A stretch of DNA of 63,829 bases, the filler included, from Licmophora abbreviata (lineage: Eukaryota): the NCBI GenBank assembly GCA_900291995.1. It is 12 parts of 12 records of this genome, joined end to end, with 100 filler letters (N's around TTAATTAATTAA, not from the genome) between each part and the next. Parts side by side here need not be neighbours in the genome. Positions count along the whole stretch, not along the records: positions 7,070 to 36,375 come from OLMU01000798.1; 11 more parts are not named here. One strand, 5' to 3'. The notes below the pieces were generated by a model. That model was not told where the DNA came from, ran no database searches, and was given only the letters and a program-made list of their open reading frames with translations. Shown piece by piece: positions 1 to 47,089 of the stretch; position 1 is the stretch's first letter; every line of letters begins with the position of its first letter. The position numbers and the translations under genes were made by a program.

Positions 1-161
1 TCCATTTTCAAAATTGAATTCGTGGTTCTCGTGCGTCGCGCCAACACGTCACAAAGGCGCAAAACCCCAGGAAAAAATCACCACGGCGTTCATCATCGTC
101 CCATCCCGTCACCCCTCGAAAGATCCAAGAACGACAGACGACGACGAGGCAAACCAGCACC

Positions 162-2713: not shown

Positions 2714-5700
2714 CTAGCTGTCAGGAGTTGGGTTAATGAGCCTGTTGTGGAAGCTTCCTTGCAGCAGAAACGAAATTGGAAGCCGATACCGACGAAAAGT
2801 CACAATCATATTCCACCAGAGCGTGGCGTTGATGTCGGTTCCGGCGCGCCATTCAGGTTTCAGCATCCCCTCAATGCCATCCGGGCCATGGATAACGTGC
2901 TCGAGTTCTTGTCGAACTACCCACGGGGACAAAAATTCACAGTACAGTGTCGTCAGCCGACCTTGAGATCCCTCGAACACAGGGGACGAAGTAAATACAG
3001 AGAATCGTGGTACAAAGCGGTGACTGCATTGCGGACATTGCGTTGTATAGTCCTGAAATTCACATGGATGCCATCCTCCAACCAACTCGTCCTCGGTAAG
3101 ACTTCTTGAGCACTGTGGACAGCAGTCGCTACTGGTGTCAATCATTAGATTAGGGTACAAAAAGTCCAGAAGGCTTGAGCCGAGTTCAATCTGCTTCCGG
3201 ACTGCATCGGTAACGATAGTGTTAAGCACTGGATTTCCGCCCAACGAGCCCAGCGAAGAGTTTCGACGTTGGCGCCTCTTTTTCTTTTCTTTGGCTTGTG
3301 GGGTGTAGAGAAACCTTCAATAGACCGTGCGACGGCATTGTAGAAGTCGGCTACGATCGACGATGTAGGAGCTGGTATGGTACCGTTGATGTCAGATGAA
3401 AAGGCTGAGCCTTCGTCGCTGCTCCAGGTTGTCTCCGTTGGTTCGGTTCTACCGTCTTCAGCAGTTTTGGATAGTTCAAAATTGTTTCTCAGCATGGTTG
3501 TATACGCATCGGAACCACGGCGATAATGGCGCCGTTTCGGATTGGAAGTGCCACTTTCCGGAGGTGGGGGCACTGCTCCTGCATCATCTCCGTTTGCAAA
3601 TGCCCGCATCAACGAGGCGTAGACCTCGCTATCCGTCACGAGACCCTCCCGTTTCATAAGCTCCATTAGCTTGAAGGCACGATCGGTGTCTCCGCACCGG
3701 CCACATGCCTCCATGAGGCTCTGGAAGGCGTCTGGGTCCGGAGAAAGACCTCGAAGCGCCATTGTTGTCAGCGCTGAGAAAGCTAAGTCCAACTGGGCAG
3801 TAGCGACATCTTTCGCTTCTTCGTACTCCGCAAGCGCAGCATTGTCCGGATCGGGCAAGCTTGTTTGACGCATGTCTTCACTATCAGACTGAGGATTCTG
3901 CTCCCAGGACTGCAAGTGTTCGGATATCTCATCTTGCAAGCGACTAGCAGCAGCGGGGGCCTCCGGACAGAGAACACACGCTTCTCTGGCGCAATCTGAT
4001 GATTGAAATGAGGCTGTCGTGCGCTCCCAGGGTAAGGTCATCTAGGATGCTATTGCACGCATCGGCATTCATTCTTTTGGGGAGCTTCCTATCGCGGTCG
4101 GTCATCAGAGCATCTTCATTGTCCAACCCGACGTCCAATGGCTCGAACGGCCCATCCCGCGTGAAAGCGGCCTCCTTCGCTAGTTGCTTCAGTCGATAAT
4201 CCTGCCACTCGCGCCCAATCACTGCGGAGTACGTGAAGCAGAAAACTGTAAAAGTCGCAACCTCAGGCGAGGGATCATAGTCCCCACCATAGAACTCCAC
4301 TGGAACTCCCGATTCGATATCATTCGCCGTTGTGGCCCGCAAGCGAGACACAAGCGCAGACTGACGGTCAAACTCGGCTGTGATGATAGCTGGAATTGGT
4401 CGAGGAGCGCAGAACAAACCCGACTCAAACTCCATAGGCCACGTCCGGTAGATAAATGACCCCTTGGCGTTATCTGGGACGGGCAGATCATCTTCGTTGG
4501 GCGCTACCGCTTGGACAGTACTTAGTTGTTTGTGCGTTCTTGCACTCTGGAGGAATGGCGTTTCAACTTTCCTGACTTTCAGTCGACTGCGATTGAGCTT
4601 TGCGTCGATACTCTGATCGAAGAAAATAACATCGGGCTCGCCAGGACTGTACATCCGCTTTGTAATGAAATCATCAAATATCTGCGTCATACAAAATTCT
4701 CGAATGAACGTCTGGTTTTCGGTCCTTTGCCATGCAATGAAGCCATCTCTATCAAACGTCCGTTGTTTGCTCCATTTCACAGCAGGATTTTCCTCTGGTG
4801 TTTCAGGAGCAGTCACACTCGGAGTATGCAGAAATTTGCGGTAATCCTTTAATAACGAAACGAAGAACCGCAAGAAGGTCTCTTGCACTTTGTCCCACTG
4901 ACTCTGTTCGCCTACTCCATCCTGATCATTCAAAAGGTTTGGTGAGTCGGGAGCGTATGCCAGATTGAAGGCTTCGTCAAACATCGCCAGGTTCTCCTTC
5001 CACCGAGGTTCTCCAGCTTTTTTCTTCAACTCTTCAAACGATCGGCTGTTCAGCTTGCCGCCCTCGTACTGCCGGTATTCCTGTTCGAGTCCTCGTGTCT
5101 TCCAGAAGAGGTCACCTGCGTCATCTTCCAAGGCGGAAGACAGTTTCCCCCACTTCTTTGGAGGAGCAGGAGAGAGCTGCGGGAAGTGATCGCCAAACAT
5201 GATGGCGTTATTGTCCAAATCGACCACCATCGTTTCGTAATTAATGTATTGCTGCGTATGGAACCAGTTCTCTCGAACAACTCCGCACAAGTATGGGAAC
5301 GGCGCATCCAACATAGGACTCAGGAAATTTGGTACTAGCGGAATGTAAAGGTGACTCCACTGCATAGGAAACAGTAGTGATGCGAGAATTTCTGCGCAGA
5401 CCGTCAAGATCGAGTGCTGACTCGACAGTAGGAGGACTTTGCGCTCCAAAATCAGCGCGTACCAGACGGTTAGCACGTTGCTGACGTCTAAGCATTCGAA
5501 GAGCGTTTGATACGGCAACGCCACATACGCGAGGGGAAGTTTCGCCGGAGGAGCCCAGAATCGAATGGTTGAAGAGAGGATGGGCACTTGGATCTCAAAC
5601 GCTCCTGGAGGCGGCGCAGGAATCTCCAGACACAAATTTTGAATGTATCGCTCGATCGGGGCCTTCATCAGATCAGTCGTTGTCGCCAGACGATACAGCT

Positions 5701-6433
5701 GCGTCAGGTACTCTCGAAATGCTGTCAAGTAAGGCCAAGTCGACAGAATGCATAAAACTCGGGGGATGTACAGCGAATGTTCTTTTTCAAAGTCTGCCGT
5801 CGTCACTTCTATATCCAGCTCTCCCGAATTGCTGTGGACTGTTTCACGCGGTCGAAATGGGTCGTCGGGCACCGAATGATATTCTTCGAAAATAGTAAGA
5901 CATGTCCCATACACCTTGCGACCCTTATCATTTGTTAAAACAAAATGATGAATGCGTGGCATGACATATGCTTTCGAAGGGACGATAATGTCCGAATGAG
6001 GGTAGCAAAACTGGGTCACCATGGGATTCAACGCATGATCAGGATAGTCAAGGAGAGGGTATCTTGCTGTAATTCCGGGCTGGAAGGTAAAATCGTTTCC
6101 TCCTGCCTGGGGCATTCGGATATTTCCATCTCCATGGGAAACGTGGGTATTGAAATTCGAAGCAGCCTCGCCTCGCTCCGGACTTCTGGGGCGAACGTGT
6201 TTTCGTCGTGGCTTGGGAGTCTGGGGAGAGGCTGGGTTCTGAGCGTCATCCCATCGCGGTAGGCTGCTGACAACTACGAAATACTCTACGAGCCGCCGCG
6301 ATGAAGTTCCGGCCTCAAAAGTGTTCTCGACAGTCTTTTTCCGTCGAAGTTTGGGCGTTCCGTTGAGACCTGGGCTTTTCGGCGACGATTTCCGACATTG
6401 AGTGGAAGTAGACGAGCCACGGTCCATCTTCAT
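2714..6433 (-). CDS. DENN-domain Rab GEF with PPR-like repeats and Cys-rich C-terminus (DENND4/Crag-like); split over three frames by two apparent frameshifts (~3975-4040 and ~3280)
   Basis: uDENN/DENN/dDENN motifs (LVEYFVVV, HHFVLTNDKGRKVYGTCL, LILERKVLLLS, LLFPMQWSHLYIP, LDAPFPYLCG, FLRFFVSLLKDYRKF). PPR-like FQSLMEACGRCGDTDRAFKLMELMKREG. C-terminal CPQC..CPQC..FLSPWVVRQELE. Start set at the first in-frame ATG; the ORF is open to 6508. Confidence 0.85.
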
Positions 6434-6969
6434 GATCCTGGAGCAATGGTAACCAATTTTCCGATGGTATGAACCCTTCCCGGGAACTTTTCCAATGAAA
6501 GGACTCAATCAAGAGATGTGCTGGCGTCCCACGCTGTAAGCATATGTCACGCCCGCCATGGTCGCCCTATAGTCTATCTACTGAGTTTGTTCGGAAACGT
6601 TTCATTTTTTGCGCGCGCCGCGAAAGCTTCGGAGTATTTTTCCACAGTGGATGCTATAAAGTTATATACTTATTAGTCACTATAGAATAGTTGTATTCGC
6701 CATCATTTGCTTGCGCGCAATGATATTGTACAATTCGTAATTAGACATGCGTAACTTGGGGTTCCAGTTTCGCCTCTCGTCAACGAGAATGAATCGAATC
6801 AATCGAATCATCCAAAGCGAAGCGGTTATTGTTGTCAAGTAGGTCTGCGGAGAATGATTGCCTTGTACGTAGCTTCCATTCGCTGTGGTGTATACGAATG
6901 CAGCATAGGTTCTACTTATTGATACGGACGAGAGACTGTGGTCTCTCTCTCAGTTCAGTCGTGAGATCA

Positions 6970-7069
6970 NNNNNNNNNNNNNNNNNNNNNNNNNNNNNNN
7001 NNNNNNNNNNNNNTTAATTAATTAANNNNNNNNNNNNNNNNNNNNNNNNNNNNNNNNNNNNNNNNNNNN
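6970..7069. other. Artificial scaffold spacer N44-TTAATTAATTAA-N44; same spacer at 36376-36475, 39723-39822, 41226-41325, 42655-42754, 45580-45679, 46899-46998, 48696-48795, 51580-51679, 58540-58639, 60025-60124
   Basis: Eleven identical 100-nt blocks; the palindromic 12-mer places a stop codon in all six frames. Confidence 0.98.
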
Positions 7070-7177
7070 ATCCTTTTTTCACCTCTCTTACCCTGCCTGA
7101 TCCCCTTCCCATTTTCCAGGAAACTTCTTTTTTGCATACTGCTATTTCCAACAACACTGTAACGCGACACCACCAGT

Positions 7178-10100
7178 ATGTCGGCACGATCTCGTCGTGC
7201 CACCTCCAAGGTGATCAACTATGCCCAGGAACAAGAGTTTAGTGACGCCGAAGACATCTTTGAAGAGGAAGAAGAAGAAAAGCCCGAGCCGGCCCCGAAG
7301 CGTCGTGGTCGTCCACGAAAGAGCAATGTGTCCGAGTACGAAGCGCCGGTAGCCGACGTAGCAGAGGACGACTTCCGAACGACGAAACCTGTCTACACGG
7401 AAAAGGGCTACGATCAGACGCTACCCCCACTCAGGGAGCTTTTCGAGTTCATGCCAGAGTATGAGCTGGATGGGTCCCCCAAAATTGAGCTCATTGTCGG
7501 CCGGCGCCCTGTCGACGACAAAAATGCTGACGCTACAGACGAGGAATCGGGAGGGGAAGACGAGTCTGGTGAATCCGAAGAAGAAACCGGCGGACGTGGG
7601 AAGCGCGGTGCGAAATCGAAAAACAAGAAGCCGGCGAAGAAGAGGAAGTCTCGCAATAAGCAGCAGAACGATGACAACCGTCATCGGAACGAACACGTTG
7701 AATTCGAGTACTTAATCAAGTACAAAGGGCGCTCGTATCTTCACTTGGATTGGAAGACTGGCGCCGACCTTGAGAGTATGGGGAAAGGCCCGAAGGTCAT
7801 GTACCGGCGGTTCTTGAAGAAACTGGCAGCCGGAACTGACGAAGAGCTGGAGGATCCCAACTTCGACCCATCCTTCGCAGAGCCACAGAAGATTGTGGAC
7901 GAGTCCGAGCAGGAAGTCACCCTCGAGCTTACCGACCAAGAGCTCATTGAATGGGAGAAGGAGCGAAAAAAGGCCCTTGCAGAAGAAGAGGCTGAAGAGG
8001 CAGCCAACGAAATCGCCATCGAAGGAGTCGAAAGCGCCGACGCGGGACTTTCGCCTCGCCCGCACAAGGAAACAGGCGAGGAGAAGAAGGAGGAGGAGGA
8101 ACAAGGTATGAAAAAATCTTAGGGGCAAGTACATTGGCTCCGTTTCTTTGCATGGCAGCTCACATCCAGGCTGTTCCTGCTTGCACAGAGGATGAGTTTG
8201 AAAAACTGTTTGAATCGGACGTCGACTTCAAAACTATTCCCCTCGACACTCTGCGAAACATTGCCAACAAAGACGGGTCTTACTACCCCAAGTTCAAGGG
8301 ATGCGACAATGCGTACCGAGATGGCTACACCACGGAACCCCCGAAGAAACCTCGAGCATCCTATATTTTCTTTCAGTCATCGATCCGGGGTTTCTTTGTA
8401 AAACGTTATCCCGATGCTACACAAGCCGAACTGATGAAGATTCTGGGAGAGACCTGGAACAATCTGACAGAGGAAGAGCAAGCCCCATTTGTTGAGCTCG
8501 CCCAAGAAGAGGCCGCGCAATATGATCGTGAACGTGCCATGTTGGAAAAGGCCCAAAGACCAAGCGCCATGTGGCAGCCACTCCGCCGTTGTCGGATGGT
8601 TCTTGACCGACTTTCCAAGGATGGCTTCGCCAACATATTCCTTGAGCCAGTCGACGAGGACGAGTTTACGGACTACCACGAAATAATCGATCACCCCATG
8701 GATCTAGGAACTGTCCGTACGAAACTCGACGAACGAAAATATCAAGCCCCGGAGAATTTTGCTCGCGACATGCGTAAGGTAGGATCCTAGAAAATCGTGT
8801 TCGCGAGGATCATATACGAGATGCTCACGTTTCTCTTCCCTCTTTGATTATCTTAATCCTCAGGTATGGAACAACTGCAAGATCTACAATCAGCACGGTT
8901 CAGCGATCTGGTTTGTTGCTGACTACATGTCGAAGCAATTCGAGCGGCTGTATCACGCTTGGGTTCTTGAGTTTCGTGAGCGCTATCTTCGGTGGGCCAA
9001 TCCAAGGGCAAGACCCTGGGAGCACACCTGCCGTCAGTGCGATGGAGAGTGCGGCACCCCCGACGATAAAATGGTCTTATGTGACCATTGTGACGCAATG
9101 TATGGAATGGCATGCATTACGCCTCCGCTCGACAAGCTCCCTACTGGTATTTGGCACTGCCCGGACTGTGAGCCGAAGCTTCACACTGTTAAAGGTGTTC
9201 GCATGCATTCGGCAGTTTCTGAACAGGCCGCAAGGAAGAGAGCAGAATTGGGAGACATCCCCAAGAAGAAGATCAAAGAGACTATGTATCTAGTGAAGTG
9301 GGCTGGGCTGGGATACGAATTTTGTTCATGGGAAACCAAAGAAGATATCAACGACGACAATCTCATCGCCGAGTACCATCGGTTGAACAACATGGTCGTC
9401 GACGAGCCGCCACTCTCCGAGGAAGAAGTCTCGGTCTATCTTGAGAAAATTGAGCACATTACCGCAACGAGTGCTGGCGGCTCGACCTGCATCCCGGACC
9501 TTCGAGCGAAGCTCTATGCACAGACGCGGGCATTTCAGTTCGCGAAGTTTGGCAGCCGCCTTCCTGACCTGCTTTGTGCGGAGTGCGGACCGAAGACAAC
9601 AGCTTCCGCCGTAGACGCTCATGAGGCGTCCGACGAGGCTCAATACTCTCCCGCACATGAAAAGCAGGTCGTCGAGTGCATGACAGAAATGGTTTATCGC
9701 GTTTCCAGCTTGTCATCGCTGCCGCTGATGCCGGCCCATCCGGCACTGCCACCACCGTTGACCGGTGAATACGATGCTGTAATTCCAATCACAGCAAAGG
9801 GTCTAATGATGAACGTCGGCGAAATAAACGGGTCTGTGGCCTTCCTTGGCTATCGACAGTTCCCAGATGGTAGCAAAGGGCCCTCGGAGAAGAGGCGTCT
9901 GATCCGTAACGCTGGAGACAAAATCATTGCTGTCGATGGGGTCAGCACAATCAAATTGTCGTTCAAGGACGTCATTTTGCTTTTGCGGGAAAGCGGTAAG
10001 CACAAGTTCGCCTACATGCGTTTCCTGGAGAACCGTTACTCGGTATGTGAGAGCGATCTTACGAGTGTGGGGATCACTGGCAGATACGCTGTTGATGAGC

Positions 10101-13100
10101 TCCGGAAAAAGTTTTCGGGAGACAGAAAGCGGCTTATCGTTCGACGTCGACAGGATCTCTTGGAGGAAGGAGATGCTGAGGCGTCGGCTGAGGAGAGTGA
10201 TGGGAGTGTCGGGCCCGAAAGTAGCTCCGACGAGGAATCGGACGACGGAAGCGAAGGCGAATTCGAGCCCGATAGCGAAGACGAGGAGCTCGTACGAAAA
10301 CTGCCTTTTCCGCAGGAAGCTGATGCGAATTCTGGAACACCTGACCAGGCAGCGATCACCTCAACGGCGAGTGCTCCGGGCACCGATGTCGCCCCTCCGA
10401 TTGGCAATGTTACAAGCACCCGGACTGACGCAGGATCAGGAGAAGTGACGCCGGTCAAGTCGTCCCCGAACAAATCTCCCAACAAACCTCGCCCTCCAGA
10501 ACTTTGGCGATCGGAAACGACTCGGTCGTTGGCATTTCGTCTCCTTGACATGGATATTGGATACAGCAGCGACGAAGGGGGCGACGAAGACTGCACTTAC
10601 TTTCTTGACGGCGTTGACGACACGTTCACTTCGTCCGCCGAGCTCCGAAGCTGTATTCCTACCATCGATTCGGATAAACCCACCTCCGCAGCTAAAAAAG
10701 ATAAAACGAAGTCGCCTAGCAAGTCGCGGAAGAAGAACAAGAAAGTCGAGGAAGATCTCACCAACGACCCAGCCATGTTCCCCGCGAAGCGTAACGAATT
10801 CTCTGGTTTAGGCGGCCGAGCCAAGCTGACGGCTGCCGTGTCACTTACGTCTAAAGAGCCCGAATTGGAGGAATTCGAGAGGTTTCCTCTTCCGTCTCGA
10901 AAATCTATGCTGGCCAAGGAGAAGGCTGATGCAGATGCACGTGCCGCTGAATTACAGTCTGTCCAACCGGATGGCCTAGAGGATAGTTTGGAGGATTCGC
11001 CGACTAAATCTCTGAAAAAATCAACAGTCAAAGTCGAACAAGTATCGGCTTCGACAGAAGAGGTTGTGAGGATCTGGCCGAACGTCGAGACTGCTGCTGC
11101 CACCCTCCAGCTTCCTTTGAACGAAATGCAGCAAATGTTGAAAGGTGACTACAACGAAGAACTTGGTGACGAAATCGGTGGGTTCCGGTGGCGATATGCG
11201 GCCGCGGGAGCAGAAGTGACGGCGCCTGGCGGGAGCACTCGGGGAAGCAAGAAGGGCAAGGATGCATTTTTGGAGTTTCGCGACAAGCTGTATGATCCGA
11301 CGGAGCCTCATGTGTACAAGAATGGCAATCGATTGCGTGATTACCAAGTTGATGGACTCAATTGGCTGGCTTCAACTTGGTACAAGCGGCATGGATGCAT
11401 CCTGGCAGACGAGATGGGTACGTAGACTGTCGCTTCCGCGAAGATAACAAGCTTCTCTTGTACGAAACCCTGCTCACTTGTTAATACTATGTTTTCTTCG
11501 AAACGGTTTAGGGCTGGGCAAGACCGTTCAGATCGTATCGTACATTGAACATCTTTCCCGCGTCGAGAAAATCAGGCGACCCTATCTGGTAGTTGTTCCG
11601 CTCTCGACGGTCGAACACTGGCGCCGGGAATTTCAAGGTTGGACCGATTTGGTGTGCTGTGTATATCACGATCGTCAGCGTATTTGGAGGGACGTCCTCC
11701 GAGAATACGAGTGGTACTTCGACGACCGGCCACACACGGCTGACTATCTCAAGTTCGATGTGTTGGTCACCACATACGATACGCTGATTTCTGACTTTGA
11801 CATCGTCGGCCAGATCCCGTGGAGAGTAGCCGTCGTTGACGAAGCGCATCGACTGCGGAACGTCAAGGGGAAACTTCTCGAGTGCATGAAAGAAATCAGC
11901 GCCAGAGGCACGCTGCATTATGGCTTCCAGAGCAGAGTCCTCATGACGGGCACGCCCCTTCAAAACAACACGCAAGAGCTTTGGACCCTCTTGAACTTTA
12001 TCGAGCCTTTTCAGTTTCCTAGTGTCGAGCAGTTCGAGGCAAGCTTCGGCAACATCGCCAATCGAGAGCAAGTTGAGGCGTTGCAGCGGGCAATCGGGCC
12101 GGTGAGTTCCTGCAGCGCTGTCGTCGCTTACCAAATAGCTTGGAACCATTTTCTTATTTTTTCTGTATTTTCTCGACAGTACATGCTTCGTAGGGTCAAG
12201 GACGACGTTGCGAAGGACCTGCCGGAGAAGTCCGAGACTGTGATTGATGTCGAATTGACGAGCATTCAGAAGCAGTACTATAGGGCGATCTTCGAGCACA
12301 ATCTTGCGTTCCTTAGCATGGGTGCTACACGACAGAGTGCTCCGAAATTGATGAACATTCAAATGGAGCTCCGAAAGTGCTGTAACCACCCCTATCTTCT
12401 GGAAGGCATTGAGCAGCGGGAAACGGAGAAGCAGTTCAACGATCTCGTCTCGAGTGGATCTTTTGAAGGAAAGTCACCCGACGAAAGACAGCTGCTTCTA
12501 AACGAACATGGCTACGTCCATACAAGTGGCAAAATGGTGCTTCTCGACAAGCTCCTTCCAAAGCTACGTCAAGAGGGACATAAGGTGTTGATTTTCAGCC
12601 AGATGGTCCGGATGCTAGACCTGATCTCGGAATACTGCGATTTTAGGGGCTTCCGTCACGAGCGCCTGGACGGAAGAGTAAGAGGTAACGAACGCCAGAA
12701 AGCCATTGATCGATTTGAAACAGAAGAGGACAGCTTCATGTTTCGTAAGTCTCTCGAGAACGTTGCATTCTCGTTGCTAACCCGCGTTCTGCCTGTCAGT
12801 CTGCTAACTCTTCTCTTGCCGTTCCTCTGCTGCAGTCCTTTCGACTCGGGCCGGAGGCGTTGGCATTAACTTGACCGCTGCCGATATCTGCATTATTTTC
12901 GATAGGTAAGTGGTAATGAGGTCTAGTGCCCTTCGTATAAGTCTTCCCTCAGTGTACGCTGATGCTGGTATTTTTCTGGATCACAGTGACTGGAACCCTC
13001 AGAATGATGTTCAGGCGCAGGCGCGATGCCATCGCATTGGGCAAACTAAAGACGTCAAGATCTATCGATTGGTCACCAGTCGTTCTTTTGAGCAAGAGAT

Positions 13101-15906
13101 GTTCGACCGCGCTAGCAAGAAACTTGGTCTCGAGCAGGCTGTCCTCGGGACATTCGGTCACGATAACGACGACGACAAGCCCACGACTCAAGAAATGGAA
13201 CAGCTGCTCAAGAAAGGCGCCTATGCTTTGCTCGAAGACGAGAATGATGACATTGGTCAAGAATTCATCGCCGATGATATCGAGAGTATTCTAGCGAAGA
13301 GGACTCGCACTCGAGTTGTCGAGGGCGCGCAGACGGCTTCGTGGTTGAACAAGCAAGGGATGATTGTGAGCAAGAGCAAGTTCACAGGGGATAGTGCTGC
13401 AGCAACTGCCGGCGTCGATGTTAACGACCCTCTCTTTTGGCAGAAAGTGATGCCAGACTTCGTCACTCCGGAAATTATGATGACGAAACTGGACGAGCTC
13501 ACGGAACTTATCGAAGGCGGGGGTACTAAGCGCAGCAAAGGGAGAGGTCGAGGGAGAAAGAAGAAAGATAAGGGGGAGACCCGCCCTATGGAAAAGTCAG
13601 AAATCAACGAAGAAAGCGAGGAGAAGGAAGAAGCGGACGACAAGGTGCCAGGAGACGAGGCCCGCGAAGATGCTGCTGAGGGAGCAAACGACAAGTTGAC
13701 TGAGAAGCCACGCAACGATGATGCAGAGGAAGCGAAGGGCGAGACCGCCGAGAAGTCAGATGATGACGCTGGGGAAGATGACAGCAAGCCGTCGGCAGCC
13801 AACCTTCAGCTTTCTCGCGGTGCCCATAGAAAGGTTGCAAAGTTCATGTCAGACTTGAAGAGCATGATGGAAGGCATCTTCGAGGAAGCGGACGATGACT
13901 CGCTCCCTCAGTCCGAGAAGTCAACATGCCAGCAACTCCTGCTTACTATATCCATCAAAGAGCGCCTGTTCAACGAAGAACAACGCAAACTGGCCAGGAA
14001 TATGTTGAAGCGTCTAGAGGGCGATCGTCGTCGTCGGTGTCGAACATCCCTTGACCGGGCATCCGCCTATGGACAACATGGCACACCTGACCGAAATGGT
14101 GGCGTCCGAGAGGAGCTCCTAATCCTGAGCAAACATCAGAAAAGGAAGCGCCGCAAACGAAAGGAAGCCGAAAAGCGAAAGCAATCGTCTGATGATGAGG
14201 ACGGGGGAGCCGTCGTCGGGGAAGATGGCTATCTGCATCATTCCGACTCCGAAGCAGATTGGTCCGACGTCGAGGACGATCTTTATCAAAGTAAGAAGCG
14301 AAGCGGGATTAGCGAGAAAGAGGCCCGCCGTCGGCGCGCTTGGGCCTCTGGGGACGACGCAGCCACGGCTGCTGGTAGAGCTTGGCCTGCTTTCCCTCGC
14401 AATGTCGTCAGAAATGTTCTTTCCACTGTCCTGGATGAAGCGATCAAGTATGATCAATCGAAAGGCGGGCTTTTTTCTGTCCCCGTCCCGCGCGACGAGA
14501 TCCCCGAGTACTACGATATGATCACGAACCCCATGGACTATGGCACGATGAAGGAGAAGCTTGAAAATGGGGAGTATCGCTCTGCTCAGGCTATGCAGAA
14601 AGATTTCACTCTTATCATGCGGAATTGCCTCAAGTTCAATGAGAAGGACTCAGAGATCGTCTCGGAAGCAAGACAGCAAGCGCTTTTGCGACCTGCAATG
14701 TTGCGAGACGCCGCGATGAAGCACAGCTTGTTCATCGCTGAAGACGGTTCTGTTCTTGAAGTGTACTCGGAGGCCGACGCTGAGGCCGACGGGAATAAGA
14801 AAAAAGGACGACGCAAGAGGAAAAAAGGGGACGAGGAGCCAGAAGAGGGCGAGAAGGATGAAATTGAGGCCAAGAAACCACGCAAGGTACGATGGATATA
14901 CATGTTTTCTTAGGAATGCTTGCTTCGCTTTCTCTCAATTATCTTTGTTTATGTATAGCGACGCAAGCAAGCCGCCAAGAAGGCTCAGTCCGGGGCAGAG
15001 GAAATGACTGCAGAGACAGACCCATCTGCCGGCAACGACGACCCTGCCCTGTCCACGCTGAACAAACCAAGGATTCGAATCAGTCTATCGAAGAAGGCCG
15101 AAGGAGGGGGGAAAAACTCCAAAAAACGGAAAAAGAAAGGCAAGAGTGCAGAACAAGAAGAGGCATCAGATGATGGTAACAAGGGCGACGATGAAAAGAC
15201 ACCAGCTCCGAAGCGGAAGAAACGAAAGACCGGCACGACTCCTGCACCACGTGGTAAGGAGGGAGCTCCTGCCTCAGCGAAAAACAAGAGTGGCACGAAG
15301 AAGCGCAAGAAGAAAGTCCCCGACGAACACGCATCGGCTGCACTGGACGACCCCGGTCCGCCTTTCGGGGATGTAAATTTCTGGAAGGTGCGACGAGAGG
15401 CGCTAGACGGAAGCTTCGATGCTGCGAGAAACAATTTCTCTGACACTGGGCCTTGGCGACTTCCTTTGCCTGTGCAAGGTAGCTTCGCGCGAATCGCGCT
15501 GGATACACTTGACAAAATGGATAGGTAAGTCCGACCGAATCCGCTGTGGCCTGTACGAGAAGCTATTCAATTTTCTTACCGTGTTTACCGTTTTGCGATT
15601 TCCAGCCACGACAACTACTCTATCTTCGAGAAGTCGGTGACGGAGAGCGAAGCTCCTGGATACTACGATGTTGTCAAGGATCCAATGGACTTCGGAACGA
15701 TGCGGAAGAAAGTCGAAAATGGGGATTATGGGGATGGGCAAGATGCGATTGTTGCACTGTTCAACGATCTTTTGCTTGTGTTCGACAACTGTCGTTTGTA
15801 CAACGAAGACGGCGGGGATGTCATGGAAGAGGCTACCCGTGTGTTTGGTTTGCTACCCGAGACGCTCGCCGAAGCGTGTGCTAACGCCGCAAAACGAAAG
15901 AAATAG
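7178..15906 (+). CDS. CHD-type SNF2 chromatin remodeler, ~2687 aa; exons 7178-8105, 8189-8778, 8864-11417, 11512-12101, 12180-12744, 12836-12905, 12987-14886, 14959-15524, 15606-15906
   Basis: All eight introns are GT-AG and keep frame, restoring [30 protein letters not shown] and [22 protein letters not shown]. Contains DEAH box, CHD6-9-like [12 protein letters not shown], chromodomains ([31 protein letters not shown]), HMG box, PHD (CRQC..CDHC..CPDC), PDZ-like segment and three bromodomains (PMDLGT, PMDYGT, PMDFGT). Confidence 0.93.
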
Positions 15907-15951: not shown

Positions 15952-18549
15952 TTATTTTTTCTGTGTCGGCGCCCGCACCAGACTTGCGAGCTCGTCAAGT
16001 GGTGCATCATCCATCGTCACCGAAATTTGAGCCCGATTGAATGTGAGGCAAGCTACTGGAGTTGAAACGCCATGGTCGGCAGCAATTTCGTCTTCCGGCA
16101 CATCATAGTTTCCATGAAGCACGTCCATCGAAGCGCGGTCATTTCGAAAACTCGAGAGAACTTCCTTTACCCGGCCTAGGACCATATCAGCGACGCCGTC
16201 TTCCTTGTCCAGCACAGCCGTTCTATCTGAGGCATCGTCGTGGGTTATCTTCTGATCATTCGCTTCGAAGTGGGGAGCTTCTGTGCCAGGCGGCACCGAG
16301 ACTCCAAGATCACTGACATTTTGCGGGTGAAAGACCGACTCGTCCTCCCCACTAGCGTCGTCTGCTGGATTGTCGTCGAGATCGTCGAGTGGCTCATCTG
16401 TCGACATTTGGTCAGGGCCTTCATCTTCGAAAGACGCCTCAATCGCCACGTCAATAGCAGAGAAACCTTGTTCGCCTTTGCCCTCAGTCTGCTGCTTCAC
16501 ATCGGGCTGAGGTTCAACTAACAAAGTGATGTCGTCTGCCTTTTTGACGAAACGGTCCATCGCCTTTTCTCCAACCTCCTCATTATTGCCCGTATCAAGC
16601 ATTTCAGTCATTCCCACTACTTCGTCGACGCTTGATGACTGACTGTGGTTCGTGACGCATGCCCCCTTAACGTGCGCGTGGCCGTCCGCGATCCTGAGGA
16701 ATTCCACAGTCGACATTTTCGAGATGTCATGTTTCACAGGTGAATTTGAACAATCGGTATTCCGGTCTTCGACCGCACTGGGTTTAGCGCGAACATCTCT
16801 TAGGCACCTGTCAGCGTTCCCCATAACGACTCGTTCCGAAAGAGTTCGCCACAGTGTTGGCTCAACATTCTGTGTCACCATGGTATCAGAAGATGGCAGT
16901 TGGAGAACCGCGATCTCAGAAAGCGACGAGGTTGTGCTCACGTCGTCCAAGTTGTAGTCAGAGGTCGGCGACGGATGCAGAACAATGCCAAGGAGCTCGG
17001 CGTCCATTATCTCCTGAAGTGTCAATGACTCAGAGAAATCCCGAGAGACCTGGCGCCTTCTACGCGGAACTTGGTAGTCGTTGTCAGCGCCCATGTCGAC
17101 GAGGCTAGAAACCGATGGTTCATCCGCGTACGTACGACGCTTTGGCGTCAATAAATTTGGGTCGACGAGCTCAAGCGACTTCTTTATCCCGTAGTCATTT
17201 CTCTCTGCAGTGTAGTCCCAAGTGGGATGCGTCACAGCCACCGATGCATTCTCAGGAGTCCGGGGCCTACTGGAATCTACCCCGAGAGATTGATCCTCTT
17301 GGCCGTACTCGCTCTTTCGACGTCTAACGGAAACCACGGTCCCAGGAATCGTAATCTCTTCGCGCAATGATTGACGGTCAGGTGAAGCTTCTGCATCTTG
17401 ATGTTTCTCGGGTGAGCCCAAGTTGGTCAAGAGTGTCGTCAAGCAAGGCTCCGAGTTGGACCGCCTGTGTCTACTCTTCTCTTCGAAAATGCGTCTCTGC
17501 GCCTCCCGATCCTTGTCACTCAGCAAAGAAAGACGGCTACTCTGACTCTTTGCATCATCATCGTCGCCCTCAAACGCAATCGCCTGGAAGTCAAAGAACC
17601 ACGTCGTCGTGTTCTTCAAGTCAAAGCTGCGTTGCCGTTTGAGCTTTCCACCACGAACGGGGGTTGTGGGTGCCGACGACGATGCCGTGTGCTTCATGTC
17701 TTCGAAATTCCTCCAAAGTTTCCGATACTCCTGTACGTCCGCCTGTCGATCACCTAGCTTGCTTGTTCGACGTTTCTTTCGTTGCTGCTGCGCCGCCATT
17801 TGGGCTTGTACGCGAACCTTGTTAAAGTGAGCAATGGTGTGTCGTTCCACCGATCCGGGCGACGGAGGCCCGTCCGATAGTGGAAGCTCTTGTCCAGGAG
17901 GAGGCGCAACGAGAGGAGGTTCGTCGTGATACACAATACTGTTTGGACCTTTCGACTGTCTACGATAGCGCGATCGCATCCTCAGCCCTTTCCGTTTCGG
18001 ACGCGGTGGGGAGCCAGTGGTACGACGCGAGTCCGTCTTGACGCCAAGCGGGTTCAGCGGACCCGGTTCACTTTCCCATGCCTTCTTGGATCGCCGGAGG
18101 GCCTCTGCATGGCTCTGATGCTGCTCTTCTTCGTCACTGGGAGCATCCGGGTCAACTTCTTCCGGAATCACTGCCGAAAGCTCTTCTGTATGGCGCAACG
18201 AAGGAACGAAACTCAGCAAAGATACGCCCTGCGACTCGGGATCGTCGCCGTCTTCTTCCTCCTCTTCTTCGTCGTCGTCCAAACGTGGATCGGGTGTGAG
18301 ATTCCCCAAAGATGACATGGGAGTCGGCAACGAGTCGGGAGAAACTGGTTGCGTTGCTGCCGTATGCTCCGAAGGCGACATGGGCGCGTTGCGTCCAGCG
18401 GCAACCACGGATAACTTGGGTTTTCGAGCGAACTTGACTCGACCCACAAACGCTCTCTTTGCTTGTTTGACGTTTGGAGTGTGGTGACTCTTGACACGGA
18501 CTCCACTACCAGTAGTTGCAGGCCCATCCACACTCTGACATTGCCCCAT
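15952..18549 (-). CDS. Hypothetical low-complexity protein (~865 aa) with N-terminal MGQCQS acylation-type motif
   Basis: Uninterrupted 2.6-kb ORF; first ATG gives MGQCQS; no recognisable domain. Confidence 0.75.
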   Translation of the reverse strand: MGQCQSVDGPATTGSGVRVKSHHTPNVKQAKRAFVGRVKFARKPKLSVVAAGRNAPMSPSEHTAATQPVSPDSLPTPMSSLGNLTPDPRLDDDEEEEEEDGDDPESQGVSLLSFVPSLRHTEELSAVIPEEVDPDAPSDEEEQHQSHAEALRRSKKAWESEPGPLNPLGVKTDSRRTTGSPPRPKRKGLRMRSRYRRQSKGPNSIVYHDEPPLVAPPPGQELPLSDGPPSPGSVERHTIAHFNKVRVQAQMAAQQQRKKRRTSKLGDRQADVQEYRKLWRNFEDMKHTASSSAPTTPVRGGKLKRQRSFDLKNTTTWFFDFQAIAFEGDDDDAKSQSSRLSLLSDKDREAQRRIFEEKSRHRRSNSEPCLTTLLTNLGSPEKHQDAEASPDRQSLREEITIPGTVVSVRRRKSEYGQEDQSLGVDSSRPRTPENASVAVTHPTWDYTAERNDYGIKKSLELVDPNLLTPKRRTYADEPSVSSLVDMGADNDYQVPRRRRQVSRDFSESLTLQEIMDAELLGIVLHPSPTSDYNLDDVSTTSSLSEIAVLQLPSSDTMVTQNVEPTLWRTLSERVVMGNADRCLRDVRAKPSAVEDRNTDCSNSPVKHDISKMSTVEFLRIADGHAHVKGACVTNHSQSSSVDEVVGMTEMLDTGNNEEVGEKAMDRFVKKADDITLLVEPQPDVKQQTEGKGEQGFSAIDVAIEASFEDEGPDQMSTDEPLDDLDDNPADDASGEDESVFHPQNVSDLGVSVPPGTEAPHFEANDQKITHDDASDRTAVLDKEDGVADMVLGRVKEVLSSFRNDRASMDVLHGNYDVPEDEIAADHGVSTPVACLTFNRAQISVTMDDAPLDELASLVRAPTQKK

Positions 18550-19149
18550 GACGCTCAAGTGAACTCAGTTGTCACAGGTAAGCGCTGTAACAGTAAGACT
18601 TTAAGTGGTCGGCTCACGAAAGACGTGACTGATTTTGAAACCTTGCAAATTAGATTTTGCCACAATCGAGTTGGCAGCTGCTATCCGAATGAGGTGCGGG
18701 ATAAGCTGGCGTACGCAATGAGCTGTCCGCACTCTAAACTTTGCTGCGACGCCACTTTGGTTGCTGCAAACGGAGCTGACGCCCTGATGAAATCGCTTTT
18801 CATAAAGACGCGGGTTCGAGCAAGTCGTGCCGATACCATGCTTTGATTTTCGGCGGGAAAGTCGTACCAAATATATCAAAATTATCAAAAGCTATTTAGG
18901 GCTGAAGATATGAGATATATTCAAACAGTGCGGCGCGCGGCGGCAATGCCGAAATTACAAATGAGCATTTGAAACTTCAGGAAGGACGAACCATGTGATG
19001 GCATGATGGCCACAATACCGGTATGATAGCGGCAGACCGGTATGGCAGGCAATAGTCTAAATTCGATTCAACGATTATATTCACTCTAAGTTAGAGCAGC
19101 AGTCTAACCAGCCACCTAATCAACTACATCTTGGGGAATCCAACGTCGA

Positions 19150-21819
19150 CTAATCTTTCGCATCTTCATTGGATTTCTCGCTGGAGGTTCCGGTCGACAA
19201 AAAGGTGAACTTTGCCGTAGGTGACGAGGGCGGTGTCGCGAGCTTGAAAGTGCCACCACCAAAGGTGGGATTGGAGGGTGTCACTTGGAACATGGCAAAT
19301 GGATTTGGAACAGATGCTTTCGTCGATACGCCCGTCGATATGCCGAGCTCGTCCACCTCCGAAGCTGCGGCAGCCGAACTATTTGCGAATGAGAATGTTG
19401 CGTGCAAGGAACTTGCCTGATGGTCGCGTTCCAGCGCTTGCGCAAAATTTACGCCCGCGAATGGATTGCTACGAGGTTCATCAGCTTCTGTGGTCTCCGC
19501 CCTCTTGGTGACGGAAAATGTCCGTCGCCCAGCTAAAGCTGGGTCTTCCGAGACTTCAGACACCACCGCTTCCTCTTCATCTTCGTCCAACTCACTGAGT
19601 TGTTCATACGTCGAGTCCTCATCTCTAGACTCCGCCGTTTCGTCGTCATCTTGATCCGTTGATGCCTCGCGTGCCATTAAAGAAGAGTCTGGCTCTGCAG
19701 AGCAAATCGCCGAAGACAGGGCATCCAGACCGAGCGTGTCAACTGACGGTTTGCCAATAGTGTGATTCTCGCTGCCCGTCGCCATGAACGAAAATGCAGC
19801 CGGTGCGATTGAGGTTGCTCCCTGGTCCCATCTCAGAAGCTGCGCCAAGTCCTCCTCATTATCCTCACCGCTTCCGTCGGACGACGTCGAGTTGCTCTCG
19901 TCGGAATCGGAGCTGTAGTCATACTCCGTATCTCGCACTTCAGCCGCCAACGAAGCTGCTGGCTCGGAGGATAAGACTGCCGATGACAGCGCACCAAAAC
20001 CAAAGCTCCTATGATCGTTAGATGCCGACGGGGATAACCCCGAAGAGACAGCAGTAGCTGGCGTTGGAAAGTCGGCGTTTATTTCGTTTGAAGATGAAAC
20101 TTTGGCCAACTCGAACGATCCAAACATGGATGCCCGAGAGGACTTCGAGGTGGACGGCGACCTGGTCTCCAGAGACGCCGGCTGAGTGCCACCAACGAGG
20201 GATCCCTGCGCAGACGCACTCGATTCAAAAACGGACGGCCTGGAAGCCATAGAGCTTACAGCGAAGAGTGCACCTTGTGAGGATACGGAACGCCCGAACA
20301 AAGGCACTTGAGACTCTGTCGACGTAAAATGTGGGGCGTCGCTGGAGGTAGAAGAAGCACAACCGAACCCGCCAAATGCGGGGGCCGTGGTGGTCGACGA
20401 CACGCCAAAAGGTGTGGCACTCGTCCCAACGACTGGTTGTTTGCTCGCCGTCGCACTCAGACTAAAGGACGACGTCGTTCCAAATGTTGTTGACTGTTCG
20501 CTTGACAGCGCTGCAAAACTTGGGGCCGCAACAGATCCACCCGATGCTAAAGTGCCAAACGTGCCACCAAACGGCTTCGTTTCTTTCGTGTCGTTGCTTG
20601 CACGCATTTCCACTCCGTCTCGAACTTCGCCACAGTCGGCAATCACAACAGACGACCGCGGTCGCTGCTTGCTGTCGGTCGGTATCTGCGCAATGTCCTC
20701 GACAACTTGCATCCCGTTGGTGACTTCTCCGAAGACCACATGTTTGCCATCCAAGTATGTAACAGGTTTTAGGGTGATGAAAAACTGAGAGCCATTCCGG
20801 TTGGGGCCGTTGTTTGCCATACTGAGAAGACCCTTTCGATTGTGTGACATGAAGTACTCGTCCTTGAACTTGCCCCATGTGTCCCCATGTTCGCTATTCG
20901 GAGGATAGATCGATTTTCCTCCTGTTCCATCACCTTTTGTAGTATCTCCACCTTGAATACAGAAACCAGGAACAATGCGATGAATCCGGCTGCTGCGATA
21001 GACTAGTGACTTCCCCTTTTCGCCCGTACATAGAGCACGAAAGTTCTCACATGCCAGTGGCGCTCGATTCTCAAACAGCACAACTTCCACCCGCCCAGTA
21101 TTCACTCTGCCATTGTAGTCAAACTCGAGAAAGCATGTCGTACCTTCTCCCGCAGCTGGTGGGAAGCCTTTGACATACTTCTCCTCCAACTTGCGAAACA
21201 GTACTTCCTCTCTCCCATTGTAAGTTTCCAGTGTCGAATCAACGGACCCCACCTTAGACGGATTGTGTTCCAAGTAAAAAGCAATCAGCCGTTCGCGATG
21301 CGAGGGCGACTCCAGAATGTCGACGCGACGCTTAGCATCATCAGGCGAGACCGGTGATGTCGATGCAGACATTTCAGCTACGTCTTTAGACTCATTCTCT
21401 GCCGTCTGCATCTTGGTTTGAGGAAGAACACTCCCTTGGGCGGAAACTGGGGAAGACTGTGACACGATACGACGTGGAGTTCTGGCATGATCCGACGACT
21501 GGATCGAACTGCCAGTTCCTTTCACAGATGCTCGAGTCTGGTTTTGTTTCGGAGTCAAGACAAACGGGGACCTTGGTTTGTGCGTCGGTGTCGTCGTCAT
21601 GCCGCCTACATCCGCCCGCACCGCCTCCAGTTTGGATGATGCCCTCTTATTGCCATCACCATCATCGGGCGCTTGTTCCTTGCATTCAAAAGATGCTAGC
21701 GGAGTCAACTTCTTTCGGGGCGACTCCTTCCATCGTTGTCGTGCTGCGCGAAAGGATTTCAAGTCTCTTTTACACTCGGGAGGCACCGGCGGCGACGAGG
21801 ATACGGAGGTCGACGCCAT
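19150..21819 (-). CDS. Cyclophilin-domain protein with FG/NPF-rich Ser/Thr low-complexity C-terminal half
   Basis: Cyclophilin motifs ACENFRALCTGEKG, HRIVPGFCIQGGD, LSMANNGPNRNGSQFFIT, LDGKHVVFG; about ten FG dipeptides and two NPF motifs downstream. Confidence 0.9.
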   Translation of the reverse strand: MASTSVSSSPPVPPECKRDLKSFRAARQRWKESPRKKLTPLASFECKEQAPDDGDGNKRASSKLEAVRADVGGMTTTPTHKPRSPFVLTPKQNQTRASVKGTGSSIQSSDHARTPRRIVSQSSPVSAQGSVLPQTKMQTAENESKDVAEMSASTSPVSPDDAKRRVDILESPSHRERLIAFYLEHNPSKVGSVDSTLETYNGREEVLFRKLEEKYVKGFPPAAGEGTTCFLEFDYNGRVNTGRVEVVLFENRAPLACENFRALCTGEKGKSLVYRSSRIHRIVPGFCIQGGDTTKGDGTGGKSIYPPNSEHGDTWGKFKDEYFMSHNRKGLLSMANNGPNRNGSQFFITLKPVTYLDGKHVVFGEVTNGMQVVEDIAQIPTDSKQRPRSSVVIADCGEVRDGVEMRASNDTKETKPFGGTFGTLASGGSVAAPSFAALSSEQSTTFGTTSSFSLSATASKQPVVGTSATPFGVSSTTTAPAFGGFGCASSTSSDAPHFTSTESQVPLFGRSVSSQGALFAVSSMASRPSVFESSASAQGSLVGGTQPASLETRSPSTSKSSRASMFGSFELAKVSSSNEINADFPTPATAVSSGLSPSASNDHRSFGFGALSSAVLSSEPAASLAAEVRDTEYDYSSDSDESNSTSSDGSGEDNEEDLAQLLRWDQGATSIAPAAFSFMATGSENHTIGKPSVDTLGLDALSSAICSAEPDSSLMAREASTDQDDDETAESRDEDSTYEQLSELDEDEEEAVVSEVSEDPALAGRRTFSVTKRAETTEADEPRSNPFAGVNFAQALERDHQASSLHATFSFANSSAAAASEVDELGISTGVSTKASVPNPFAMFQVTPSNPTFGGGTFKLATPPSSPTAKFTFLSTGTSSEKSNEDAKD

Positions 21820-22046
21820 GGTTCCGGTAATGAAACTCGATTTTGTTTGATGTCGCCCGCGAGCTTTGAAACCTCATCGCGGGCGATTCTCGACATCAAG
21901 GGAGCTCGAGGGATGCCGAAGCGGGCAGTCACGAGATCGTTTACAATGAGCTTGCAAAACAGAGGTTGCACATCTACATATCGTCTTTAGAAGTAGCTAA
22001 TACTTCCATAGTCCCCTGTCTGGTCTGAATCGACCGTCGCAGATTC

Positions 22047-23842: not shown

Positions 23843-25973
23843 CTATAGCACCGCAGATACTAGGGCCGATACCACTAGCGTCGTCGAAAGAACAAAACGT
23901 CGATTCGCATTGGTACTAGAGCTCGGTGCAAGAGTATCGTCTGGCACAGTAGTTGGCGACGGAGTTGGATCGTCCCCGGAACACGCGGCAGATGTATCAC
24001 TGGCATCAAAGCAATTGCATTTCGGGCGGGGACTTGCATCCCAGTCGCAGACTCCCCGACCTGAACAGGAGCTTGGACAGAATAAATGCGGGCAGACAGT
24101 GCGCAGCCGGGGACAGACCATGGTTGCGGACCCTCCGTTAGCAGTGCGGATGGAGAGCTCCTGAAAGTCAAACTCACAAGTTTGGCCGCCCACGATTAGT
24201 TTCTGTTCAGCAGCATTGCATGTAATCGGAAGACAGGCAGGGTTGAACGACACCGCTCCCAAAGTATGCAATGACACAGCGACTGTTGGCTCCGACGGCT
24301 TCGCCTTCGTAGGTCTCGCTGTATTCTGTGTTGGAATTGGTGCAGTCGATCCTAGTTGGAATGATGGGGAGAGGACAGAAGTCTGGAGTCGCTTCGATAC
24401 TCCCAAGAGCAGAATTCGAAAAGTAGCTGACACGGTCGTCTGGAAAGTATCGTTGAAACTCTTCTGCTACAGTGCTTGTATCGAACAAGTCACAGGCGGC
24501 AAACTCCGTGTGTGTCGGGTCACAGACAAGCTCGTTTGGCCCCACCGAGCCGTCGTCGTTGATGGCATTGATGGTCGAACAAAACACGTCTCGGCCATAG
24601 TCTGGCACTGCGTCGTCGATAATGCAGTCGCCATTAACAAAGTCACATCCTAGACCATGACCGAAAGGAGACGTTCCTACATTGCCATATAGCACCTTGT
24701 ACCACCCCGAGTCGTCCAATAGCGCCAGCGTTAAAGCCGAAAGGACAATGGCCGTTGCTGATTGCCGCTTGTAGACAGTTCCCATTAGTTCGGAGAGAGC
24801 AATCCGTTCATCCCAGTGAGAGCCGACACAGCTGTCAGAGGTAAGAGGCTGGTTCTCTAGACGCGCACCTGCGAGACTTTGGCAATTGTAATGATTCCGT
24901 GCAACGGTCCTGACGGTGGGCGTCACGACGTCATAGTATAAGAGCCCCTTATCGGTTTGACCCATTCGTACCGTTGCGTTGGACGGGAAAGTCATTCCTC
25001 GAACACTTCCGTCAACGCACGTGACCATCTGAGGCTCAAACGGTCGAGGTGTGAGTGGTGCTCCAGAAGTCTTGTCGCGAAAATACTTGAATAAGTGAAA
25101 CGCAAAGCCGAGAACGTGCCCTGCCTCATGAAGCCCCAAAGGTGTAATCACGTCAACCTCCTCGGCCCTCAGCGGCTCATCTCTTGCAGGTAGGTTGGGT
25201 ACGCAAAAGTTTATCAAGCCAATAACCGGTCGATCAAACTGGTCTTGGGCACACACAGTCGACACGGCCCGCCTCGTCTCAGTGCACTGAAAGACAGATA
25301 CCTCATTGTTAGCTTCGGTCGTCAACGTATCCTTGGCACTGACATACACAACTAGATCGGCACTATCTGAGGGGATTCGATCAAATTGGTCGTTTCGATA
25401 TATGCTGTAGCAGTCGTCGTTCTCTAGTGATATGGAGCCTTGTACAGGATGGACCGAGAGATGACTGGACAATATTTGCGCCATCTCGGGGATAACCTAC
25501 AAAAGAGGGAGAAGAGTAGCGTTGTTACATTTACGAGAGTGCAGAGTCCTTTCAAACATTGCGAAACACCATTTACATACATCACTGAGTACGGCATCGA
25601 TGAAACTGTTCAAGGCCAAACTTTCGCCCCGCCGAGCTTCGAGAGGCTGCGTGATGAATTGGATTCGCAGTGGCTCAAACGTTTCTCGCTCGTTATAGTC
25701 CAAGCCAACTTGCTCAGGATCTGATAACTGCAAGTTGCGCATATGTTCGAAGGGATGACTGGGGCCATAGTCGACGTTGACCTTCTGGATGCTGTTTTGG
25801 TTCGACATTAGGTCCTCCCATCCAGGCGGGGGCGGTGCGCGCCGATGATTGCTCGCAAGCTTCAATCCTGAAGAAATGAAATCATCAGCCCTGATTTGCT
25901 TGGTCATAGACAAAGCAAAGAAGGAGACACACGCACCAGCAAGACACGCGCTTGTTCTTTTGCTTCTCCTCAT
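23843..25973 (-). CDS. Leishmanolysin/GP63 (M8) metalloprotease with EGF-like domain and hydrophobic, possibly GPI-signal, tail; intron 25580-25497; apparent +1 frameshift at ~24241
   Basis: N-terminal signal-like segment, DQFDRPVIGLINFC, LHEAGHVLGF zinc motif, GARLENQP, SHWDER, Met-turn ELM, LTLALLDDSGWY. The second frame continues CPSSCSGRGVCDW and ends VLSTTLVVSALVSAVL. Confidence 0.9.
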
Positions 25974-45579: not shown

Positions 45580-45679
45580 NNNNNNNNNNNNNNNNNNNNN
45601 NNNNNNNNNNNNNNNNNNNNNNNTTAATTAATTAANNNNNNNNNNNNNNNNNNNNNNNNNNNNNNNNNNNNNNNNNNNN

Positions 45680-46685: not shown

Positions 46686-47089
46686 GCTTTTTTATACTAA
46701 TTGTATGCGACCAAGAGTAAGAGAAGTGCTAGGAGTTAAACGTTTCTCTGATCATTGATATACAAGAGGGACGGCAGCGTGGAGCGGATGGTGTGTGTGC
46801 GGTGATGTGATTGATATGATTGTTTAACAGCGCACGCGCTTTCGTGAGATTCTCGGTTAACAAAAGAACAGAAGACGCGTCACGCAGCGCGCGCAAAANN
46901 NNNNNNNNNNNNNNNNNNNNNNNNNNNNNNNNNNNNNNNNNNTTAATTAATTAANNNNNNNNNNNNNNNNNNNNNNNNNNNNNNNNNNNNNNNNNNNNGT
47001 TATCCCAAAGCCACATTTTATGCTCCACATGCTATAATCTCACTCCCACCTTATTGAACCCAAAAGTGACAGTCTAAATGTTACAACGA

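Follow-up and report, generated by a model that had tools for sequence, protein, structure and literature searches.

A subfamily III CHD remodeler of the diatom Licmophora abbreviata with HMG, bromodomain and PHD modules most likely nested in its second chromodomain

The window analysed here is a stretch of 63,829 nucleotides (nt), filler included, joined from 12 records of the genome of the diatom Licmophora abbreviata (GCA_900291995.1). Positions 7178-15906 of its plus strand hold a predicted gene of nine exons with a single open frame of 2,687 amino acids (aa). The product probably represents diatoms in an ancient lineage of CHD subfamily III nucleosome remodelers that stramenopiles share with alveolates, and its HMG box, first bromodomain and PHD finger are most likely nested in the first hairpin of chromodomain 2. 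The gene is genuine and conserved, and it belongs to an orthogroup that has already been tabulated in the literature. A Pfam search of the product gives, in order, chromo, HMG box, bromo, PHD, chromo, PDZ, SNF2, Helicase_C, bromo and bromo, which is the order proposed in an earlier note on this DNA, apart from a NUMOD1-like domain. The E-values are 0.019 (weak), 3.7e-16, 1.6e-16, 2.9e-6 and 1.4e-10 for the first five of these, and 5.4e-21 then 6.2e-19 for the C-terminal bromodomains. Two features of CHD remodelers are found, an intact SNF2 ATPase and a tandem chromodomain N-terminal to it, the latter in sequence only and with its chromodomain 2 interrupted.

Canonical subfamily III CHDs run from chromodomain 1 through a linker to the first strand of chromodomain 2, which a short hairpin loop joins to a Lys-Trp strand. 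In the Licmophora protein the first strand stands directly behind chromodomain 1, and the Lys-Trp strand comes 415 aa further on. When a profile was built from the double chromodomains of five canonical CHDs, it matched the protein in two collinear pieces. The first, aa 177-261, aligns well as far as about residue 245, a span with chromodomain 1, the linker and the opening strand of chromodomain 2; the second, aa 644-682, is the remainder of chromodomain 2. The same collinear split recurs with this profile in diatom, Triparma, Chromulina, Ascophyllum and oomycete rows of the homologue set. The distance from the Lys of chromodomain 1 to the first-strand motif has a median of 55 aa in insert-bearing rows (118 of 123) and 57 aa in the others (81 of 87), counts that include near-duplicate rows, and from that motif to the Lys-Trp of chromodomain 2 it is 144-666 aa with the insert versus a median of 24 aa without it. 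An independent motif matrix, trained on 64 canonical rows, was run over 90 non-identical insert rows: the site behind chromodomain 1 is the best in the whole protein in 72 of them and among the top three in 85, and in 89 of the 90 it outscores every site within the 60 aa before Lys-Trp. Moreover, the N-terminal half scores 51.5 bits on a chromodomain 1 profile versus 6.4 on chromodomain 2, and the C-terminal half 62.1 bits on chromodomain 2 versus 24.3 on chromodomain 1. In ochrophyte-type rows the outgoing arm of the hairpin is net acidic (53 of 55), the returning arm is net basic (54 of 55), and hydrophobic positions are conserved, as would be expected of an antiparallel stalk. Together, the split profile match, spacing, motif ranking, half scores and arm charges suggest that HMG-bromo-PHD is most likely looped out of chromodomain 2. 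These features make it highly probable that the double chromodomain keeps the normal fold of a single unit, with the inserted domains on an extended two-stranded stalk. The earlier note had described two whole chromodomains separated by HMG, bromodomain and PHD modules; on the sequence evidence that picture gives way to a chromodomain 2 that is itself split, its first strand lying behind chromodomain 1 at the usual spacing.

The SNF2 motor has the catalytic motifs Walker A, DEAH and motif VI. Its best PDB matches are Chd1 and CHD4, with CHD chains at 120 bits versus at most about 103 for Snf2/BRG1. In a 30-row mixture-model tree, which also places the source organism among the diatoms, the ATPase joins the CHD8-like rows (100/98) and is set off from CHD1/2, ISWI and BRM; a 190-row FastTree tree gives the subfamily III grouping a support of 99. 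By its sequence the ATPase belongs to CHD subfamily III (CHD6-9/Kismet), which PMC9113485 likewise delimits by ATPase grouping, and phylogeny and PDB matches agree with the earlier assignment to the CHD-type remodelers. ATPase placement, the Cys of motif VI and the post-ATPase segment are shared with subfamily III (Trujillo et al. 2022, PMC9113485), whereas the SLIDE/BRK region was not found. Neither Pfam nor a 32-row profile of the canonical C-terminus matches SANT-SLIDE, SLIDE or BRK in this protein. That profile matches 4 of 155 family rows, over its first 90 positions only, versus 41 of 81 other rows; SLIDE and BRK occur in 'most' subfamily III members and are typical but not defining. A search of the same genome returned one 99% match to the gene and 12 other SNF2-family matches, which include two further CHD-type, three ISWI-like and one BRM-like (L005). 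The SWI/SNF ATPases BRM/BRG1/Snf2 likewise combine an SNF2 motor with a C-terminal bromodomain, but the ATPase here groups with CHDs and not with L005, and the Pfam scan of the protein gave no HSA or QLQ match.

The same 30-row tree unites alveolate, oomycete, thraustochytrid and ochrophyte rows in a 12-row group (91/93). Within it one Hondaea paralogue (P0222) has no insert, which is likely a case of insert loss. In the 190-row tree the oomycete protein P0174 (SPRG_14442) stands in an oomycete clade inside the 69-row group (support 90) to which the Licmophora protein also belongs; a second tree gives 94. In a wider tree the insert-bearing rows lie inside a 54-row group (97), mixed with insert-less rows, many of which are truncated at the N-terminus. 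When the bromodomains are taken by themselves, all 27 inserted ones and that of P0232 group together (98/92). A single gain with later losses is the preferred history on these trees. In P0232 the inserted-lineage bromodomain (aa 684-772) lies between the two ATPase lobes, which is a gene-model error or a true rearrangement. P0164 is labelled Batrachochytrium salamandrivorans yet groups with Hondaea P0222 at 100, and it is probably mislabelled or a contaminant.

Exon 3, compared with longer proteins, has 46 matches, of which 43 are family members; names among them are Seminavis, Nitzschia, Mayamaea, Entomoneis and Thalassiosira, and the cluster of P0004 includes Phaeodactylum entries. HMG matches in P0042 and P0043 were judged spurious (18-19 bits, motif absent), which lowered the full-architecture count from 24 to 23. 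The domain profiles built for this work used P0001-P0043 and the Licmophora protein as training rows; for these the scores are circular, and the domain order alone is informative. Among the best 120 of 7,945 matches to the ATPase are Triparma, Ascophyllum and many oomycetes with bromo-PHD-chromo content. A search of 50% representatives (best 150 listed) added Mucochytrium, Hondaea, Cryptosporidium ryanae and further rows, whose insert at this site is a bromodomain alone; the Mucochytrium protein and P0268 combine this insert with the usual short linker between chromodomain and ATPase. The core architecture is present in Parmales, a chrysophyte (Chromulina), brown algae and oomycetes. Provisionally, the insert contains a bromodomain in stramenopiles and alveolates, PHD and PDZ belong to oomycetes and ochrophytes, the NUMOD1-like domain to ochrophyte rows, and the HMG box to diatoms and Parmales-group rows; the HMG box is the sole part that appears restricted to diatoms and Parmales. 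The PDZ, joined in ochrophytes by the NUMOD1-like domain, lies in the linker between chromodomain 2 and the ATPase. C-terminal bromodomains occur in several ochrophyte groups. Ascophyllum, P0042 and P0137 combine them with NSD-type PHDs; diatoms lack these PHDs and have two such bromodomains at the place occupied in oomycetes by an NSD-type PHD cluster. The possibility that the PHD-chromo piece came from Mi-2 was considered and rejected on profile scores and on the absence of PHD from the bromodomain-only inserts.

Among known relatives, the closest account is that of Matari & Blair 2014 (PMC4030286), who list the orthogroup 'Chromodomain-containing protein (D)', PITG_03401, with the oomycete order chromo-bromo-PHD-chromo-PDZ-SNF2-Helicase C. 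Its orthologues comprise oomycetes including SPRG_14442, Ectocarpus, four diatoms and Tetrahymena 00193800. The Licmophora protein shares this order and the ATPase grouping with P0174. In contrast, the oomycete form ends in a PHD/zf-HC5HC2H (NSD-type) cluster; the Licmophora protein has two bromodomains at its C-terminus instead and differs further in its HMG box and NUMOD1-like domain. The gene served there as a dating marker, and neither the nesting nor the architecture of the diatom form is mentioned in the parts of the article covered. The description 'lineage-specific' in the earlier note is too narrow, since the core architecture recurs in the four groups named above, from Parmales to oomycetes, and the orthogroup is tabulated in PMC4030286; by these searches and that table, the core architecture is largely both widespread and described.

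Tetrahymena CHD1 (TTHERM_00193800) is likewise a subfamily III CHD with a bromodomain between its chromodomain matches, but is listed in a 2025 review (PMC12361904) with one bromodomain and three PHDs, and with no HMG or PDZ in the part covered. The review calls the arrangement, with the bromodomain 'between' chromodomains, unique to Tetrahymena, a claim that is contradicted by the same-site bromodomain identified by sequence in oomycetes, thraustochytrids and Cryptosporidium. By analogy with the alveolate-grouping rows P0343, P0302 and P0306, the insertion site in Tetrahymena CHD1 would be the same. PMC9113485 reports that subfamily III expanded in stramenopiles into three clades; its domain list, drawn from model organisms, has no bromodomain, and 'bromo' is absent from its main text. 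Nothing further about the architecture comes from the covered parts of PMC8638923 and PMC6562869. No description of the nested insertion or of the diatom architecture was found in the literature searched, which covered few subscription journals. Older surveys of protist chromatin proteins may mention it. The nested insertion and the diatom elaboration thus appear undescribed so far, even though the orthogroup itself is already tabulated.

Several observations weigh against the reading given above. The best PDB match of the C-terminal half is chromodomain 1 of CHD5/CHD4, at 22.7 bits versus 15.1 for the second chromodomain of CHD5, although chromodomain 2 rows of subfamily III outscore that match (median 26.7, top 45.8 bits). 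From the conserved Lys-Trp to the motor there are 671 aa, close to the figure of about 650 aa in the earlier note, and docking of the chromodomains on the motor may be lost. None of the trees included a subfamily II (Mi-2) sequence. An exclusive clade of insert-bearing ATPases is rejected (approximately unbiased (AU) test, p = 0.00076, at least three changes, with 17 N-truncated rows dropped), and a single origin therefore requires losses. The bromodomain tree has 105 columns and only the family's own other bromodomains as outgroup. The PDZ and NUMOD1 assignments are both under Pfam cut-offs. For PDZ the E-value is 0.015, and 0.001 for the excised domain, still short of the cut-off; PDZ domains make up nearly all PDB matches of the region, and the PDZ match is stronger in orthologue P0135. 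The NUMOD1-like domain of the earlier note gave no match in the Pfam search of this protein, but is upheld by an ESM Atlas match (0.92) to a cluster with NUMOD1 in 37% of its members and by P0135, which matches PF22083 (NUMOD1-like) at 4.7e-6, marginally below cut-off. Moreover, functional data on any family member were not found in the literature searched.

With regard to mechanism, the motor would translocate along nucleosomal DNA as other CHDs do, and the chromodomains would bind DNA and gate the motor instead of reading methyl-lysine. The three bromodomains may recruit the enzyme to active, acetylated chromatin, and DNA contacts that other CHDs make through SANT-SLIDE, a region not detected here, could come from the HMG and NUMOD1-like domains. 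CHD double chromodomains touch nucleosomal DNA and regulate the ATPase in other proteins (PMC7338049; also PMC9113485), from which we infer the same for this one. The whole mechanism of CHD-like translocation, gating chromodomains, bromodomain recruitment and HMG/NUMOD1-like DNA contacts is judged somewhat better than an even bet. It is possible, at a clearly lower level of belief, that the double chromodomain folds but has been detached from the motor by an expansion of the linker by ~600 aa, so that the N-terminal half would be a tethered reader or scaffold and the motor would be gated otherwise. The linker has a median of 623 aa in insert rows versus 58 in others, and it contains conserved diatom-specific segments and the PDZ domain. 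However, the canonical linker ends persist (a Pro-rich stretch after chromodomain 2 and a Tyr-Lys-Asn segment ahead of the ATPase), conservation of the chromodomain residues is strong, and the insert coexists with a short linker in P0255 and P0268.

The history of the insert can also be read in another way, in which the bromodomain entered independently several times at an insertion-tolerant loop and the lineage pattern is convergence. CHDs without the bromodomain hold low-complexity inserts of up to ~180 aa in the same loop, and the rejection of an exclusive clade by the AU test agrees with such repeated insertion. This is nonetheless considered unlikely: the inserted bromodomains unite at 98/92, the ATPase subtree matches organismal relationships, and PMC4030286 handled the genes as orthologues.

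The residues of the putative readers bear on the suggestion in the earlier note that the protein combines acetyl, methyl and DNA readers. Two bromodomain positions, taken from general bromodomain motifs to be the ZA-loop Tyr and the BC-loop Asn, are retained almost throughout: the Asn in 39/39, 34/36 and 32/33 rows and the Tyr in 38/38, 36/37 and 32/33 rows for bromodomains 1, 2 and 3, respectively. Acetyl-lysine reading by all three bromodomains is plausible on this conservation, as is DNA binding by the HMG and NUMOD1-like domains, and to that extent the suggestion stands. The methyl-reader part is not supported. The aromatic cage of the H3K4me3-reading human CHD1 chromodomain is W322 and W325 (PMC13224165), whereas the corresponding residues of chromodomain 1 are Tyr182 and Arg185, and across 32 rows the W325 position is R in 21, K in four, V in three and Q in two. 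In addition, the PHD is degenerate and has lost its His zinc ligand: of 39 aligned rows, 28 have Gly at this position and two have His. An extra Cys569, invariant in 36 of 36 rows of the diatom PHD, could replace the lost His, and the PHD is missing altogether from four diatom rows (P0034, P0035, P0038 and P0039). The view taken in the earlier note, of independent and separated chromodomains each free to read a histone mark, draws on two widely spaced Pfam chromo matches and on PMC12361904 and PMC4030286, which put the bromodomain between chromodomains. It is very improbable, as the C-terminal piece lacks a first strand, which is found instead at canonical spacing behind chromodomain 1, and the CHD1 cage is incomplete.

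The eight introns of the gene model are all GT-AG and 72-94 nt long (8106-8188, 8779-8863, 11418-11511, 12102-12179, 12745-12835, 12906-12986, 14887-14958 and 15525-15605). Six of the eight predicted junctions lie in conserved sequence and are indel-free in an alignment to nine homologues; junctions 1 and 7 have low-complexity surroundings and cannot be checked in this way. Fusion of at least two neighbouring genes in the model deserves hardly any credence, since, although some public models are fragmented (Phaeodactylum P0066 and P0074; Thalassiosira oceanica THAOC_02504/02505), 23 of the 46 exon 3 matches carry the entire domain order within one protein, four of these 23 are MMETSP entries labelled 'type:complete', and P0001 (2,760 aa) comes from an 8,511-nt contig too short to hold these introns. 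The single frame and the complete diatom transcripts with the same domain order support the one chain of the earlier note, with eight predicted junctions. The features are collected in Table 1.

Table 1. Exons and predicted domains of the Licmophora abbreviata gene, in window coordinates
Feature	Residues (aa)	Window position	Strand	Basis or remark
Exons 1-5		7178-8105, 8189-8778, 8864-11417, 11512-12101, 12180-12744	+	gene model
Exons 6-9		12836-12905, 12987-14886, 14959-15524, 15606-15906	+	gene model
Chromodomain 1, first strand	100-112	7475..7515	+	then acidic/basic loop, like canonical CHD8-like P0184
Chromodomain 1, core and linker helix	174-228	7697..7861	+	Tyr182/Arg185 at CHD1 W322/W325 positions
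Chromodomain 2, first strand and acidic outgoing arm of interrupted hairpin	229-252	7862..7933	+	profile, spacing, motif matrix
HMG box, within putative insertion	360-430	8338..8550	+	Pfam; diatom and Parmales-group rows only
Bromodomain 1, within putative insertion	438-540	8572..8965	+	spans intron 2; Tyr472, Asn515 invariant
PHD finger, within putative insertion	558-610	9017..9175	+	Gly587 in place of His ligand
Basic returning arm and remainder of chromodomain 2	638-690	9257..9415	+	Pfam, profiles
PDZ-like domain	806-898	9761..10039	+	sub-cut-off Pfam, PDB matches
NUMOD1/I-HmuI-like domain	1225-1287	11018..11206	+	in ochrophyte rows, absent from oomycete rows
SNF2 ATPase, two lobes	1322-1825	11309..13164	+	spans introns 3-6; Walker A, DEAH, motif VI intact
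Conserved post-ATPase segment	1826-1935	13165..13494	+	common to other subfamily III CHDs
Conserved unnamed domain	2036-2125	13795..14064	+	also in non-diatom members
Bromodomain 2	2238-2340	14401..14709	+	Tyr2274, Asn2317 retained
Bromodomain 3	2576-2682	15487..15888	+	spans intron 8; Tyr2607, Asn2654 retained

The unnamed domain of ~90 aa yields no useful match in Pfam or the ESM Atlas; it is weakly present in the wider clade without SANT-SLIDE and is a candidate replacement module. A CXXC zinc finger occurs in the C-terminal part of the diatom and Parmales rows P0021, P0023, P0025, P0027, P0031, P0041, P0116-P0118, P0120 and P0301, between bromodomains 2 and 3 where its position was checked; it is shortened in P0028-P0030 and P0032 and absent here. 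The thraustochytrid-group CHDs with a bromodomain insert P0255, P0288 and P0279 have an ARID domain behind the ATPase, and two of them a weak GATA finger. Upstream of the gene, window positions 6970-7069 are a scaffold gap of N's that includes a short TTAATTAA-type linker. The contig of the gene (C798) begins 108 nt ahead of it, and the N stretch interrupts the promoter side. A coding exon upstream of the N stretch was rejected in view of an in-frame stop at 7160-7162 and of homologue N-termini that start at the same place as this one. Unrelated genes of the window are EF-G-like (574-2538), DENN (3947-6508), cyclophilin (19153-21873), a leishmanolysin-family peptidase (24210-25496), aquaporin (45627-46691) and DGAT (55083-56138). 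Among 18 open reading frames scanned in the window, six have no Pfam match, including 15955-18564.

A bolder proposal, which we regard as improbable at present, is that of a stramenopile/alveolate class of acetylation-gated remodelers, in which a bromodomain sits on the motor-gating chromodomain module and acetyl-lysine would switch the ATPase directly, beyond tethering, with diatoms extending the scheme to a single-chain enzyme of three bromodomains. If true, the diatom enzyme alone would take on a task for which animals and fungi need multi-subunit complexes. The natural series at one site (bromodomain; bromo-PHD; HMG-bromo-PHD) allows a test of whether an acetyl reader can be coupled to the module that gates a CHD motor, and Phaeodactylum and Tetrahymena are both editable. 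The bromodomain-bearing CHD, called Tetrahymena-only in 2025, spreads over stramenopiles and alveolates. The probable nesting redraws a listed but unstudied remodeler lineage as one in which the hallmark double chromodomain is probably intact.

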